This document shows positions 1,707 through 13,248 of a DNA stretch of 64,000 nucleotides, one piece after another. How positions within the stretch are numbered: the first letter of the stretch is position 1; every line of letters starts with the position of its first letter. The notes beneath the pieces were generated by a model. That model did not search any database, was not told the origin of the DNA, and worked only from the letters and a program-made list of their open reading frames with translations. Origin of the DNA: Vicinamibacterales bacterium (lineage in GTDB: Bacteria; Acidobacteriota; Vicinamibacteria; Vicinamibacterales; 2-12-FULL-66-21); assembly GCA_036401215.1 (NCBI GenBank), contig DASWVN010000164.1, positions 9,611 to 73,610 of the forward strand, read 5' to 3'. Position numbers and translations under genes: made by a program.

Positions 1707-1850
1707 GGTCCGGCTTCCGGCTCTGGGCTCCAGGCTTCCGGCCAGAAACAACCCTCTATTATCGCCTGAGATAGGGGGTCTTTGGCAACTGCCCGTCACG
1801 AAAGCAGAAAACCTCGGCCAAAAGCCGGAAGCCCAAAGCCTGCAGCCGGA
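1707..1850. repeat. Inverted repeat of GCCGGAAGC-type units (arms 1707-1743 and 1815-1850) with an inner hairpin
   Basis: GGTCCGGCTTCCGGCTCTGGGCTCCAGGCTTCCGGCC pairs against GGCCAAAAGCCGGAAGCCCAAAGCCTGCAGCCGGA. Inner stem CCCTCTAT/ATAGGGGG. Confidence 0.8.
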
Positions 1851-9155: not shown

Positions 9156-9617
9156 ATGCGGGCGCTTGGCGTCGATTACGGCCGGCGGAGGATCGGTCTC
9201 GCGCTCTCGGATCCGAGCGGACTGCTGGCGCGGCCGTGGAAGACGATCGCCCGCGCCGGCAATCCTTCGCAGGTGGCGCACGCGATTGCGGCCGAAGTCC
9301 GGCAGCTCGAAGCAGAGGGTGAGCCGGTCGGCGTGATCGTCCTCGGCTATCCGCGGCGCTTGAGCGGCGCGCCGAACGAGCAGACCGGCAGCGTCGAGAC
9401 GCTTGCGGCGCAGCTGCGGACGGTCATCACGCTGCCGCTGGTCCTGCAGGACGAGCGTTTGAGCAGCCGCGAAGCCGAGTCCCTGCTGGCGCGGCGTGAG
9501 AAGGACTGGCGAAAACGCAAGGCGCAGCTGGATGCGATGGCTGCGGCAGTCATCCTGCAGGACTACCTTGACGAGACCGCCCGCCCGAACGCGGGCCCGG
9601 AGGGTATCGATACGTGA
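9156..9617 (+). CDS. ruvX: Holliday-junction resolvase-like pre-16S rRNA nuclease RuvX/YqgF
   Basis: MRALGVDYGRRRIGLALSD..., the YqgF signature. Followed by mltG as in many bacteria. Confidence 0.88.
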   Translation: MRALGVDYGRRRIGLALSDPSGLLARPWKTIARAGNPSQVAHAIAAEVRQLEAEGEPVGVIVLGYPRRLSGAPNEQTGSVETLAAQLRTVITLPLVLQDERLSSREAESLLARREKDWRKRKAQLDAMAAAVILQDYLDETARPNAGPEGIDT

Positions 9618-10636
9618 AGCGGATCATTCTGTGGGGCGTGCTCGCGCTCGTCGTAGCCGTCGCGGCGGGAGCGGCATGGTTCTATACGAGTCTCGAACGG
9701 CCGTACAAGGGCTACGCGGAGGCGGAGACGTTCGTCGAAATTCCGTCCGGAACGGGCACCGCGGCGATGGCCCGTCGTCTGGCCGAGGCCGGGGTCGTCC
9801 GTTCTCCTGAGATCTTCCGCGCCGCGGTCTGGGCGCGCGGGGATTCCCGCCGCCTGCAGGCAGGGGAGTATCGCTTCGACCGGCCGATGTCGCCGGCCGA
9901 AGTCGTCGACAAGATCGCGCGCGGTGACGTTTACGTGCGTTCGTTGACGTTTCGGGAAGGGCTGACGATTCGGGAGAAGGCGAAGATCTTCGAGGACGCG
10001 GGCTTCGGTTCAGCGGCCGACTTCATCGCCGCGGCGAACAACGCGGACCTCGTCAAGGGATTCGACCCGGCCGCGAAGGACCTCGAGGGCTATCTCTTCC
10101 CCGACACCTACACGCTGCCGCGGACAGTGACCGCGGCGCAACTGATCGAACGCATGGTGGCCCGCTTCGAGAAGGTGCTCACGCCGGAGTTGCGCGAGCA
10201 GGCGGCGGCGCGCGGCCTGAACGTGCGCGAACTGGTCACGCTGGCCTCGCTGGTCGAGAAAGAAACCGCCAAGCCCGAGGAGCGCCCGATCGTTGCGGGC
10301 GTCTACACGAACCGGCTCAGGATCGGGATGGGCCTGCAGTGCGATCCGACCGTCATCTACGCGCTCATGCTCGAGGGCCGCTACGACGGCAACATTCGCC
10401 GCGCCGATCTCCAGATCGACAATCCGTACAACACCTACCGCTACGCCGGTCTGCCGCCCGGTCCCATCGCTGCTCCCGGCGCCGCGTCCCTGCACGCCGC
10501 CGCGAACCCGGCCGACGTCCCCTATCTCTACTTCGTCAGCCGCAACGACGGCTCACACGTCTTCTCGAAGACCCTCGACGAGCACAATCGGAACGTCTAC
10601 GACTATCAGATTCGGCGGCGCCCCTCGCCGCAGTGA
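9614..10636 (+). CDS. mltG: Endolytic murein transglycosylase MltG (YceG-like)
   Basis: N-terminal TM helix. YceG motifs LASLVEKET, AGVYTNRLRIGMGLQCDPTVIY, YNTYRYAGLPPGPIAAPG. 4-nt overlap with ruvX. Confidence 0.9.
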   Translation: MKRIILWGVLALVVAVAAGAAWFYTSLERPYKGYAEAETFVEIPSGTGTAAMARRLAEAGVVRSPEIFRAAVWARGDSRRLQAGEYRFDRPMSPAEVVDKIARGDVYVRSLTFREGLTIREKAKIFEDAGFGSAADFIAAANNADLVKGFDPAAKDLEGYLFPDTYTLPRTVTAAQLIERMVARFEKVLTPELREQAAARGLNVRELVTLASLVEKETAKPEERPIVAGVYTNRLRIGMGLQCDPTVIYALMLEGRYDGNIRRADLQIDNPYNTYRYAGLPPGPIAAPGAASLHAAANPADVPYLYFVSRNDGSHVFSKTLDEHNRNVYDYQIRRRPSPQ

Positions 10637-10637
10637 C

Positions 10638-11028
10638 GTCCGGCTTCCGGTTTTCGGCCTGCTGGGGGTTCATTGACCGCTGTTGCCGCGGCACACCGGT
10701 GGGCAGCGGTCGGCGGCCGGGGCGGCTGTCACGGGCCGACGGCTGTCGGCACTAAGAACACGAAGAACACAAGGGCCACGAAGAAGAGCACGACGCTTTT
10801 GGGTTGCTTCCGGTCACGTCGGACACTGGCTTCGGTTGAAAAACCAGCCGTGGTCATTCACCAGACAAACCAAAAGCTTCGTGATCTTCCTTAGTGTTCG
10901 TTGTGTTCTTTGTGGCCATCGTGCCCAAAAGCGTCGGCCCGTGCAGGCCAATCGACTTTGAGCTTGCAGCCCGTGCTGGCCGAAAGCCGGAAGCCGAGAG
11001 CCGGAACCCGGAAGCCGAACTCCGAATC
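10638..11028. repeat. ~390-nt composite imperfect palindrome filling the mltG / TonB-receptor convergent spacer
   Basis: The outer arms CGGCTTCCGGTTTTCGGCC (10641-10659) and 10978-10996 match 18/19 as a reverse complement. Middle pairing runs GTCACGGGCCGAC / GTCGGCCCGTG. The GAACAC-unit arms lie at about 10750-10790 and 10889-10918. Inner pairing runs GCTTTTGGGTTG / CAAACCAAAAGC. Confidence 0.8.
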
Positions 11029-11034
11029 ACGCGA

Positions 11035-13248
11035 TCAGAACCGGAACCCCAAGGTGAGACTCCCGGACCTGCCAGGCGCATATACCCACCGGTTGTCCGG
11101 GCTCGCGTAGTAGTCGTCGTCGAGCAGATTGCGGACGATGCCGCGGAGTTCGAGGCTGCGGTTGAAGCGCCAGCCGGCGCTCAGGTCGATGACGGTGGAT
11201 CCCGGCGCTTCGATTTCACTCGGGCCCGGACGATCGTCGTCGGCCGTGAACGACGCGCGCGCTTGAGTCCAGAGACGCTCGGTGAAAGTCTTTCTTGCGA
11301 GGACGAACACCGTGTCGGCCGAGATGTCGTCGAGTGGCTGGTCGTCGTCGAGCGCCTTGCCCCGGCTGATGTTGAGCCCGGCCTCGACGGCAAGGCCGCG
11401 TCCCAGATCGCTGCGTGCCTCGAGTTCGAAGCCGCGGACCTGTGCACGGCCGCGGTTGCGGAAGAAGAAGAAGTCCTCCTCAGCCTGATAACGCTCGACC
11501 AGGTCGGTGATCCGGTAGTGATAGACGTAGGCGCCGAACTGCGTGCGGCCGAGCGTGTAGTGCGTGGCGAAATCGAACTGCAGGCTCGTCTCGGGATCGA
11601 GGTCCGGGTTGCCGGTGATGAAGCCGCGCCCCGACGGTCCGCGGAAGTAGCGGTCCGACAATGTGGGATCGCGGAACCCGCGTGAGACCTGGCCGGTGAA
11701 GCTGAGCCCGCTGAACGGGCCGACGGTTACCGCGCCGAAACCCGAAAACGCTCCGTTCGACGTGTCACGGTCCCCGAAGAATCCACCCACGTTCTTCGTC
11801 GTGACCCGATCGCCGCGGACGCCGGCAGAGAGGCGCAGGATCTCCGAGGCTGCGAGGTCTCCCTGGGCATAGACGCCCAGATCGACTTTCCGCGCCGAGT
11901 CGACCGACAGATTGTTCTCTTCCTCGATGAGTGAGCCGTCGGTCGCATACAGGATGTTCGTGTCGATGGCTTCGAGGCCGTAGCGGCCGTTCACGTCCAC
12001 ACCGAACTCGAGACGAGCGCGGGCGAGATTGCGCGTACCGCTCGCCTTGACGTGAAAGTCCTTCGCGCTGACGTCAGCGCGTTCGATGCTCCGCCCACTC
12101 GTCGCCGTCGCGAAGCGGTCCTGGTCGGTCCGTTGGTCGAAAGTCCCGACGAAGCCGGTGATCGTCAACTGCTGGAGACCCGCGACGCCCGCGACCTCAT
12201 ACGACGTGGTCATCCGGTGCGAATTTTCGTAGGGATAGTAGAAGCGAACGGTTCGCGAGTTGTTCCGCGGACGTTCGATGTCGCGGCCGAAATCGCTCTG
12301 CCACCCGGCCGAGAACAACCCTGGCCCGAGCTGATGGTCGAAGCGCGTCAGGAAGCCGCGATCTTCCCAGCCAGAATTGAAAACGCGCTCGTCGCTCACC
12401 GGGCTGGCCCAATCGTCGGCTTCGCGAGCGCGTCCCTGAAAGAGGATGCCGCCACGCTCGAAGCCCTGGGACACTTCGACTGTCCCACGGCGTTGAGGGA
12501 TGCCACCGCCCCAGGTGCCGCTGCCGCTGATGCGGAGGGGCGTTCCGGGCTGGGCGCGGCGCGTTCGCACAGACACGACGCCGCCGAGCGCGTCGGAGCC
12601 GTAGGCTACCGAACCTGGACCGCGCGCGACGTCGATTCGCTCGAACGACGCCGGGTCGGCGAACGTCGCGCTGGGTCCGACGCGGCGCTCCGACGTGACC
12701 CTGCCGCCATCGATCAGGACGAGCGTCCGTCCGCGCGCCAGACCACGGATCGCCGGCACGGTGGCGTGCCCCTCGGAAACGACGTTCACGCCCGGGACGG
12801 TTTCGAGCGCCTGCATGAGGTTCTCGGGCAGCCGGCTCGAAATCTGCGTGGTCGACATCATCGTCGCGGCAGAGGCCGCGGAGGATGTGATGCTCGGCGC
12901 CGAGCCAATGACCGTGATGGATTCTTCTTCGAACGGTGTGATGCGAATATCCGTGGGCTCGCCCGTCAACGTCGTCACGTCGACGGGCTGAGTCACGGCG
13001 CCGCCGGGGAGCACGACCACGATCTGGAAGGGCACGGCGGGTGGAGGGCCCCACGTGAACCTGCCGTCAGCATCGGTCCGCGCGGTCGCGGAGAAGCCTG
13101 GAATCGTGACCGTCGCCCCGGCGATCGGTTTGCCGGTCTCGGAGTCGATGACCCGACCGGCGAATGGTTGTTGAGCGTCGGTCAGGGTGGCGGCAGGTCC
13201 GAGGCAGGCCGCGACGACGATGACGAGCACCGAGGCAATCCGGAGCAT
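11035..13248 (-). CDS. TonB-dependent receptor with N-terminal carboxypeptidase-regulatory-like domain
   Basis: Signal peptide; GRVIDSETGKPIAGATVTIPG (CarbopepD_reg-like); plug motifs (IRGLARGRTLVLIDG); beta-barrel ending in LTLGFRF. Confidence 0.85.
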   Translation of the reverse strand: MLRIASVLVIVVAACLGPAATLTDAQQPFAGRVIDSETGKPIAGATVTIPGFSATARTDADGRFTWGPPPAVPFQIVVVLPGGAVTQPVDVTTLTGEPTDIRITPFEEESITVIGSAPSITSSAASAATMMSTTQISSRLPENLMQALETVPGVNVVSEGHATVPAIRGLARGRTLVLIDGGRVTSERRVGPSATFADPASFERIDVARGPGSVAYGSDALGGVVSVRTRRAQPGTPLRISGSGTWGGGIPQRRGTVEVSQGFERGGILFQGRAREADDWASPVSDERVFNSGWEDRGFLTRFDHQLGPGLFSAGWQSDFGRDIERPRNNSRTVRFYYPYENSHRMTTSYEVAGVAGLQQLTITGFVGTFDQRTDQDRFATATSGRSIERADVSAKDFHVKASGTRNLARARLEFGVDVNGRYGLEAIDTNILYATDGSLIEEENNLSVDSARKVDLGVYAQGDLAASEILRLSAGVRGDRVTTKNVGGFFGDRDTSNGAFSGFGAVTVGPFSGLSFTGQVSRGFRDPTLSDRYFRGPSGRGFITGNPDLDPETSLQFDFATHYTLGRTQFGAYVYHYRITDLVERYQAEEDFFFFRNRGRAQVRGFELEARSDLGRGLAVEAGLNISRGKALDDDQPLDDISADTVFVLARKTFTERLWTQARASFTADDDRPGPSEIEAPGSTVIDLSAGWRFNRSLELRGIVRNLLDDDYYASPDNRWVYAPGRSGSLTLGFRF

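Follow-up and report, generated by a model that had tools for sequence, protein, structure and literature searches.

Two gene-less hairpin repeat elements, one within the loop of the other, in the spacer between convergent mltG and TonB-dependent receptor genes of a Vicinamibacterales bacterium

In some bacteria, a short hairpin-forming repeat is kept in partnership with a small nuclease. NTS/SRM repeats occur in hundreds of copies and are partnered by Ssn, a GIY-YIG single-strand nuclease (Chenal et al. 2025, PMC11893778); copies of the repeat lie on either side of the Ssn gene, repeat-rich genomes tend to carry the gene, and the system is tied to natural transformation. REP/BIME/REPIN elements, partnered by RAYT (PMC3733652), are high-copy extragenic palindromes of 20–40 bp with a GTAG or CGTC tag, located at gene 3' ends as single copies, inverted pairs and arrays; a domesticated enzyme with a single-copy gene is believed to mobilise them in trans. 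Intervening sequences (IVS) of rRNA occupy a helix of the 23S rRNA gene and are removed by RNase III; in those of Coxiella (PMC4990558), a small PF05635 gene, the S23p ORF, is situated in the loop of a long inverted-repeat stem. In Xanthomonas and Nostoc, dispersed heptamer repeats (Rehm et al. 2015, PMC4692102), like the cyanobacterial STRRs, consist of 7-nt tandem intergenic units in variable number. They are under-represented where ORFs diverge, occur near stop codons, are G-rich and form quadruplexes, and have been described mainly as arrays. MITEs, such as the Neisseria Correia and the enterobacterial ERIC elements, are gene-less sequences of 100–300 bp with long inverted arms, which occur in many intergenic copies and are occasionally nested.

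The spacer analysed here lies in a stretch of 64,000 nt (hereafter, the window) from a soil MAG of the Vicinamibacterales (Acidobacteriota; 5.76 Mb, 344 contigs, 66% G+C). It consists of two different gene-less hairpin repeat elements, an inner hairpin with arms of CAC nonamers situated within the loop of an outer hairpin with arms of CGGCTYY heptamers. The element belongs to none of the REP/RAYT, Ssn/NTS, rRNA IVS and Xanthomonas/Nostoc heptamer systems; the closest designs are the repeat-plus-nuclease partnerships (Ssn/NTS and REP/RAYT), with the rRNA intervening sequences also close.

The CAC-nonamer family resembles Ssn/NTS in that a predicted small-nuclease gene has its repeat on either side, in 18 orthologous loci, and in that repeat-rich genomes tend to carry the gene (four of five); the counterpart of the tie to natural transformation is solely adjacency to comEC. 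These shared features amount to a likeness of design, not to membership. The putative partner is a TIGR04256/PF13366 protein of the predicted PD-(D/E)XK type and not a GIY-YIG protein, and the repeat is a 130–260-nt hairpin of 8–9-nt tandem units, whereas NTS is a short hairpin. The likeness to REP lies in copy number, in the position at gene 3' ends and in the forms of occurrence, and mobilisation in trans by one enzyme is likewise proposed below; however, the present elements are 5–10 times longer and have tandem-repeat arms. The CGTC motif is present inside the CAC box, within an architecture that differs from that of REP. The genome encodes three PF01797 (Y1_Tnp) proteins as candidate RAYT partners, and within 1.5 kb of their genes boxes, tags and nonamers are all absent; RAYT/IS200-type genes occur in nearly all genomes and do not adjoin the repeats. 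The comparison with the IVS rests on the PF05635 genes that lie between heptamer arrays, described below; the window element differs in that it lies between protein-coding genes instead of in rRNA, has tandem heptamers as arms and contains no ORF. Compared with the Xanthomonas/Nostoc repeats, the arms are paired as hairpins and have conserved non-repeat termini, and the gene-bearing copies hold a small gene in the loop. Compared with MITEs, the inverted arms are present but internally periodic, and neither target-site duplications nor a transposase-bearing parent were found; the only gene-bearing relatives carry a predicted nuclease-fold gene and not a known transposase.

A stable fold built from two hairpin elements

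The preliminary description of the window had named mltG and a TonB receptor as convergent neighbours of the spacer, and both are confirmed by Pfam (Table 1). It had also read the whole 398-nt spacer as one giant palindrome, which holds for positions 10637–11034. On the plus strand, the spacer folds with a minimum free energy (MFE) of −216.2 kcal/mol, against −158.7 ± 6.2 kcal/mol for 100 dinucleotide shuffles (z = −9.35), none of which folds as stably; the spacer is far beyond chance. The fold of the minus strand is similarly strong (−197.7 kcal/mol, z = −7.6). Both layers contribute separately: the outer arms alone, joined via a GAAA loop, reach −49.8 (z = −5.6), and the inner part alone (10673–10978) reaches −156.5 (z = −8.1). 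All of the arm pairs described previously are present. The outer GCCGGAAGC-type arms had been credited with 18 of 19 matching positions, a figure close to the complementarity measured over 21 nt (86%) and 32 nt (81%). The GTCACGGGCCGAC / GTCGGCCCGTG pair with its runs of GAACAC units forms the middle arms, and the GCTTTTGGGTTG / CAAACCAAAAGC pair lies inside the innermost arms, on the two sides of the apex loop (10807–10865).

Table 1. Features of the mltG–receptor spacer and its flanks (positions in the window)
Feature	Positions	Strand	Remarks
mltG / YceG-like gene	9614–10636	+	stop codon 10634–10636; Pfam PF02618, E = 5e-93
TonB-dependent receptor gene	11035–13248	−	stop codon 11035–11037; Pfam CarboxypepD_reg + Plug + TonB_dep_Rec_b-barrel
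Outer arm pair	10638–10658 / 11000–11020		21 nt, 86% complementary
Outer arm pair	10641–10672 / 10965–10996		32 nt, 81% complementary
Middle arm pair (GTCACGGGCCGAC / GTCGGCCCGTG and GAACAC-unit runs)	10730–10783 / 10890–10943		54 nt, 76% complementary
Inner arm pair (holds GCTTTTGGGTTG / CAAACCAAAAGC)	10783–10806 / 10866–10889		24 nt, 88% complementary
Outer heptamer hairpin, left arm	10638–10672		GTCCGGCTTCCGG TTTTCGG CCTGCTGGGGG (CGGCTYY family); pairs with 10965–10996 and 11000–11020
Inner element, left end module	10673–10729		small local hairpin 10675–10711, then ...GGGCGGCTGT; boundary approximate
Left box	10730–10743	+	CACGGGCCGACGGC; most conserved columns of the family profile, 83–100%
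Left nonamer arm	10750–10793	+	CAC-NAN-GRM units CACTAAGAA CACGAAGAA CACAAGGGC CACGAAGAAGAG CACGA; direct repeats, period 9
Inner stem	10794–10877		GCTTTTGGGTTG / CAAACCAAAAGC; 59-nt loop 10807–10865
Right nonamer arm	10878–10923	−	KYC-NTN-GTG units (plus-strand reading); inverted repeats; nhmmer arm match
Right box	10931–10943	−	GCGTCGGCCCGTG, the family GCCGTCGGC-N-CGTG minus one base
Inner element, right end module	10944–10964		CAGGCCAATCGACTTTGAGCT; between box and outer arm; unique in genome; boundary approximate
Outer heptamer hairpin, right arm	10965–11028		(RRAGCCG)n: GCCGAAA GCCGGAA GCCGAGA GCCGGAA CCCGGAA GCCGAAC

The 398-nt gap folds as one giant hairpin because one repeated hairpin element sits in the loop of another kind. 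Repeated insertion of palindromic elements, each into the loop of an earlier one, had been suggested as the origin of the layers. A palindromic element is indeed nested in the loop of another, but only two elements are present and there is no series of insertions. Layers two to four, previously regarded as separate insertions, form one unit: some 60 further loci contain both the GTCACGGGCCGAC box and the GAACAC runs, and among the loop variants several (e.g., C19, C336 and C268) again have the GCTTTTGGGTTG inner stem. From the single architecture of the aligned copies, the three layers therefore travel together as one element. In a search of the genome, repetition is limited to the middle part (about 10721–10947), which has no fewer than 173 matches; few relatives of the outer arms exist in the own genome, and the apex and two further pieces in the middle are unique. 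The arms at 10721–10806 (plus strand) and 10866–10943 (minus strand) match the profile of the CAC-nonamer family, and the window copy possesses the box, at least three nonamers and the two inverted arms by which the family is defined. Likewise, the outer arms (10638–10672 / 10965–11028) contain at least three tandem CGGCTYY units starting from gtcCGGCTTCCGG and an inverted RRAGCCG array. Within the left end module, the local fold at 10675–10711 is no better than that of shuffles.

Nesting is rare for the CAC-nonamer family and not habitual; of 40 testable clusters, only two (the window spacer and C34:3223–3300) are enclosed by an outer inverted repeat, and the corresponding figure for control gaps is 4%. 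The last codons of the receptor gene (GFRF) had been noted as resembling the repeat unit, and this looks coincidental, as repeat-free orthologues also end in aromatic-x-F (...NF, ...HF, ...QF). The window feature itself is ordinary for the lineage; the interest lies in the family behind it.

Repeat families and their distribution

A profile search of the own genome recovers 199 CAC-nonamer arms in 63 clusters; 33 of the arms are solo and the others form 83 inverted pairs. With 27 of the 63 clusters reaching contig ends, in a fragmented assembly with 7.7% contamination, such copy counts are rough. Each arm has, in order, an end module that is semi-conserved and about 20 nt long (..CAC-N8-GCTGN), a CACG-N-GCCGACGGC box, a spacer of 3–7 nt and four or five nonamers. 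In the nonamer CAC-NAN-GRM, the C, A, C, A and G columns are 91–100% conserved and the other four are free. The second arm is the mirror image of the first across a variable loop, which is either short (total length 130–200 nt), about 60–70 nt long (the window copy, C19 and C336), or occupied by a conserved insert of about 100 nt (total about 260 nt). The elements are about 130–265 nt in length, and the inner element of the window is about 290 nt. Its own loop (10807–10865) has no second copy in the genome.

Within one element, a G-arm (CACGGGCC.., often GCCAAACGGC) is combined with a C-arm (CACGCGCC.., CACGCGCCGACGGC), and these two types differ in many columns. Because the arm types differ and the difference is inherited, the aligned copies show the element to be copied as a whole asymmetric unit and not by fresh local inverted duplication. 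The palindromy arises from two inverted copies of a conserved motif array, and not from selection for base pairing. Many copies are arranged in tandem arrays with conserved linkers.

The copies sit almost only at the 3' ends of genes. Where both neighbouring genes are visible, 18 contexts are convergent, 17 tandem and one divergent, as counted with a crude GC3-based gene caller that reproduces the window genes. The C-arm is proximal to the neighbouring gene in nine of 13 clusters, which is not significant. The flanks of 60 copies show no target-site duplication, and no GxxExxY gene remnant was detected in the loops of the family (tblastn, E > 0.3). The solo arms of the own genome include no gene-bearing copies and represent truncated hairpins. 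Rfam contains no matching family; the sole match, MIR831, scores 27 bits against a threshold of 100 and is a chance hit to a plant miRNA.

Across 151 genomes sampled, the pattern CAC.A.G..CAC.A.G..CAC.A.G..CAC is found 119 times in the own genome, 207 times in G043 (from another family of the order), 29 times in G109 and 12–14 times in two others. Most genomes, including one of the same genus, contain 0–3 matches. A reversed control pattern is absent from nearly all genomes, with scattered matches and a maximum of 13 in one. The copies in G109 are clearly homologous, with ACGCGCCGACGGC or ACGCTCCGG boxes and CACRAAGRYC units. G043 also contains plain tandem CACGAAGGT arrays, one of which is in frame within the era gene.

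The outer CGGCTYY family has 18 arrays genome-wide and occupies no fewer than 15 loci. Arrays at C220, C77, C176, C21 and window position 1707 share non-repeat termini, starting with gtcCGGCTTCCGG and ending with GGCCTGCTGGGGG. A stand-alone CGGCTYY hairpin is located at 1707–1850 of the window. The right outer arm of the spacer combines direct and inverted repeats, with related arrays at C147, C21, C64 and C77. The outer hairpin forms an independent family, able to occur without the inner element. Furthermore, the genome contains 13 PF05635 (23S_rRNA_IVP, four-helix-bundle) genes, nearly all of which lie between inverted heptamer arrays, with a different heptamer at each locus. One of them, C248:7943–8359, lies between CGGCTYY arrays of the same flavour as the outer arms of the spacer; no orthologue of this gene closer than 55% identity was found elsewhere. 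The outer hairpin probably relates to the 23S_rRNA_IVP genes as the inner one would to a GxxExxY cassette, a tie suggested by this one locus (C248) in one genome.

The nearest available genomes have only about 79% MltG identity. In congeners, the convergent order of mltG and the receptor gene is kept, with a spacer of 20–210 nt whose content differs nearly everywhere. The spacers of G152 and G062 are empty (20–25 nt, no hairpin), and that of G161 holds a plain hairpin. In G160, the spacer holds a (GGCTTCC)n/(GGAAGCC)n hairpin and the inner element is absent, so the comparison with relatives proposed in the preliminary description does recover the outer layer without the inner one. The remaining spacers hold a hairpin of CACAGAAGAA units (G157), CTCCTGA heptamers (G153), GTGCGAC heptamers (G154) and a CAC-nonamer arm (G155). 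Because the contents differ between congeners, the site is a dumping ground of rapid turnover. The hairpin, as judged from these orthologous spacers, is not needed by the mltG/receptor pair. A metagenome scan for a near strain with an empty site returned zero matches.

GxxExxY genes beside comEC

Four PF13366 (GxxExxY) genes are present in the own genome. The gene at C286:16946–17338 (TIGR04256, E = 3.5e-33) overlaps the end of a ComEC/Rec2 gene (TIGR00361, E = 3e-35, C-terminal third), and 62 nt past the GxxExxY gene begins an array of at least four CAC-nonamer elements that runs to the contig end. The C67 gene is situated between AACACGGAAGA arrays. A CGACAGCCAC tag flanks the C152 gene on both sides and the C158 gene on the downstream side; the same tag also caps many CAC elements. 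At least five inverted 9-mers are common to both flanks in nine of the 13 IVP genes and two of the four GxxExxY genes, compared with 3.3% of 1,180 other small genes.

The C286 protein has a reciprocal best match in G109 (56% identity), which is also encoded after comEC. The G109 orthologue is bracketed by arms with the exact termini of the gene-less hairpins of that genome, GACGCTCCGGCAC...GTGCCGGAGCGT. A comEC-linked orthologue occurs in 18 of the 121 genomes of the order searched, and the gene follows comEC in all 18 loci examined (15 fetched loci together with those of the own genome, G109 and G043, from at least seven families). Over these 18 genomes, the CACRAVG motif occurs 70 times in forward and ten times in reverse orientation within 300 nt upstream of the orthologue, and three times forward and 72 times reverse within 300 nt downstream, on a background of 0.2 per 300 nt. 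Unit length has drifted, with values of 8 and 9 nt (CACGAAGA, CACGACGA, CACGAAGGN), and the core and the polarity are kept. Across Vicinamibacterales, sequence comparison shows arms with a CACGAAG core and the same polarity bracketing one orthologous GxxExxY gene, a predicted PD-(D/E)XK gene. The window element has the same polarity as the bracketing arms (CACGAAG arm, loop, CTTCGTG arm), and its loop corresponds to the position of the GxxExxY gene in the gene-bearing relatives.

The D...ExK nuclease motif is kept in all orthologues. In the comEC-linked gene of the own genome alone, His replaces the Glu of the GxxExxY motif, which is Glu in all 17 other orthologues. This gene has also lost its upstream arm. 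Among the five genomes with at least ten matches to the pattern, four carry the orthologue (the fifth, G145, is not scorable), compared with 18 of 121 (15%) overall. GxxExxY genes are present in 12 of 12 genomes checked, whatever the repeat load, and gene-less copies are nearly absent from many genomes that carry the comEC-linked gene. Presence of the gene, which also occurs widely in genomes lacking repeat bursts, thus does not suffice for the repeat to spread.

A sequence search of the PDB with the GxxExxY protein gave no match. An AlphaFold model from the four paralogues reached a pLDDT of 58, and Foldseek returned no match with E below 0.5; since this model is too poor, the assignment to the PD-(D/E)XK fold rests only on Pfam and NCBIfam. 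A literature search on the CAC repeat sequence and on the function of GxxExxY/PF13366 yielded one relevant item, an entry in a catalogue of 2012 that says 'Unknown', and no paper describing a partnership between the CACGAAG repeat and GxxExxY was found.

Readings of the nested spacer

The most probable reading is that the spacer holds a nested pair whose inner copy is a gene-less satellite of the GxxExxY cassette, tolerated at gene 3' ends. The window copy would be a MITE-like or REP-like satellite of the comEC-linked nuclease cassette, multiplied or maintained in trans by a CACGAAG-recognising protein, most likely the GxxExxY protein itself. It would have landed by chance inside another hairpin, and between the convergent genes it may act at most as an incidental barrier or RNA-end hairpin. 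A more specific proposal, to which we give only a small chance, is that the CACGAAG hairpins are the cognate DNA targets of the comEC-linked GxxExxY protein, the two together making up a system like Ssn/NTS but with another nuclease fold. The hairpins would be cut or recognised as single-stranded or hairpin/cruciform DNA, for example, DNA incoming during natural transformation, and the approximately 100–200 gene-less hairpins would be genome-wide sites, spread by the action of the protein. If true, this would provide the first function for PF13366, a very large family.

Both layers might instead have grown in place, via replication slippage and local inverted duplication, as part of a lineage-wide filling of gaps by 7–9-nt arrays with no transfer between loci. 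The spacer array does differ in almost every congener (GGCTTCC, CTCCTGA, GTGCGAC and CACAGAAGAA), unit numbers vary, pure tandem CACGAAGGT arrays exist (including the one in frame in era of G043), and nesting is no commoner than chance. However, non-repetitive boxes (CACG-N-GCCGACGGC) and end modules are common to about 60 loci and to another genus, subfamilies have conserved loops and linkers across contigs, and the arms are of systematically different types, the opposite of what fresh local inverted duplication predicts; growth in place is accordingly judged unlikely. A selected functional hairpin, acting as a bidirectional terminator, an insulator, a stabiliser of mRNA 3' ends (perhaps as an RNase III site) for mltG and the receptor gene, or a structured small RNA, would suit the very stable fold on both strands and the preference of the family for gene 3' ends with avoidance of divergent (promoter) gaps, and such roles are played elsewhere by REP/BIME elements and rRNA intervening-sequence stems (PMC3733652, PMC4990558). 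Against it, compensatory change and strand asymmetry are both absent: complementarity at variable columns within elements is no higher than between elements, and lower at several; with RNAalifold, the covariation term over 18 copies is +0.48, and only three of 29 pairs contain a double change; and G-U-type mismatches are equal on both strands (329 versus 321). A search for a Rho-independent terminator (GC-rich stem with a U tract) gave one weak match inside a nonamer arm, within the shuffle expectation, and no promoter or Rfam family was found. Furthermore, solo arms and same-direction arm arrays exist, and orthologous gene pairs cope with hairpin-free spacers of 20–25 nt. A selected hairpin is, in our judgement, quite improbable. 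The idea that the arms are tiny membrane-peptide genes, their GTG-TTC-TTC units encoding hydrophobic peptides of V-F-F type, takes up the observation that the reverse units (KYC-NTN-GTG) have only hydrophobic codons in an open frame. The last unit is, however, 12, 13 or 14 nt long and the spacer between box and arm varies by 1–4 nt, so no reading frame is kept; loops of 10–20 nt are too small for a start codon, a ribosome-binding site and a promoter; and candidate ORFs of the spacer have no Pfam match, which leaves this idea with hardly any probability. The inner element is free of RNA-structure or coding constraint.

Taken alone, the giant palindrome is just a curiosity, a spacer occupied by two junk-like hairpins. 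Behind it stands a class of hairpins with tandem-repeat arms in soil Acidobacteria, apparently tied to small genes in the hairpin loop. The CACGAAG-core flavour has stayed with one GxxExxY orthologue next to comEC order-wide and has burst to hundreds of gene-less copies in a few genomes. The poor assembly of these genomes is partly explained by the repeats, because many contigs end in arrays. A partnership of a repeat and a small nuclease, as suggested here, would resemble REP/RAYT and NTS/Ssn in design, with a different protein fold. It offers a concrete candidate substrate for a large family of proteins with no known function.

Hairpin and single-arm arrays of the CAC-nonamer family

In the source genome, the CAC-nonamer hairpin, the inner element of the mltG/TonB-receptor spacer with arms built of a box and CAC-NAN-GRM nonamers, recurs outside the window as an array of at least four hairpins, which lies 3' of a gene of the GxxExxY family (PF13366) that itself overlaps the end of comEC, and extends to the contig end. 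Polarised CACGAAG arms at the comEC-GxxExxY pair are found again in 18 genomes of the order. The encoded protein retains a complete D...ExK motif and carries His at residue 34, where the family-naming Glu is present in all 17 of the 17 orthologues.

Single CAC-nonamer arms also stand in same-direction tandem on two contigs, C193 and C321, with a period of approximately 137-150 nt and a separate linker for each arm; multiplication of an arm thus does not require a partner. Such arrays are located at the ends of many contigs of this genome, and probably explain part of the fragmentation of its assembly.

Heptamer hairpins and related repeats

The CGGCTYY-heptamer hairpin that forms the outer layer of the spacer also stands alone in the window, sharing with that layer the start GTCCGGCTTCCGG and enclosing a unique loop of about 70 nt (fold, -75 kcal/mol). 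A truncated CAC-nonamer arm within a CGAACTC/GAGTTCG heptamer hairpin is the sole nested case besides the spacer. Furthermore, the genome contains thirteen four-helix-bundle genes of the 23S_rRNA_IVP family (PF05635), nearly all of which are flanked by inverted tandem arrays, with a heptamer that differs from gene to gene.

In a congener, the orthologous mltG/TonB spacer is occupied by a CACAGAAGAA-decamer hairpin, a flavour similar to the arrays around another GxxExxY gene of the source genome. In a genome from another family of the order, approximately nine CACGAAGAA-type nonamers lie in frame within an Era-like GTPase gene, inserting an (E-H-E/K)n stretch immediately ahead of the VVFVDTPG motif.

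Locations of the repeat elements and associated genes (G000, source genome; G157, congener; G043, genome of another family; C, contig)
Feature	Genome	Location	Repeat
ComEC/Rec2 gene, overlapping 130-aa GxxExxY gene, hairpin array	G000	C286:14427-18429	CAC nonamer
GxxExxY gene of this locus	G000	C286:16946-17338	
Same-direction single arms	G000	C193:1-1250; C321:1-900	CAC nonamer
Hairpin standing alone	G000	window 1707-1850	CGGCTYY
Nested arm	G000	C34:3223-3300	CAC nonamer in CGAACTC/GAGTTCG
IVP genes	G000	C301, C284, C248, C182, C17, C245, C116, C12, C89, C305, C300, C94, C252	examples: AGGAGAC, GGGGATG, CGGCTYY, GCGGTGC, GGTGCTG, GAATGCT, GTGCGAC, CGAACTC
Arrays around GxxExxY gene	G000	C67:531-854	similar to CACAGAAGAA
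Orthologous spacer (L137)	G157	C32	CACAGAAGAA
Era-like GTPase gene (L117)	G043	C2:103100-103600	CACGAAGAA type
10-mer, example loci	G000	C6:15419-15500; C58:6924-6990; C66:6700-6760; C152; C158	CGACAGCCAC

A 10-mer at the element edges

The 10-mer CGACAGCCAC is repeated in the source genome, where a C precedes 129 of the 161 GACAGCCAC sites. Two or three direct copies of it, about 25 nt apart, often border intergenic repeat elements, cap many CAC-nonamer elements and flank two GxxExxY genes. CGACAGCCAC may be an end tag common to these elements.
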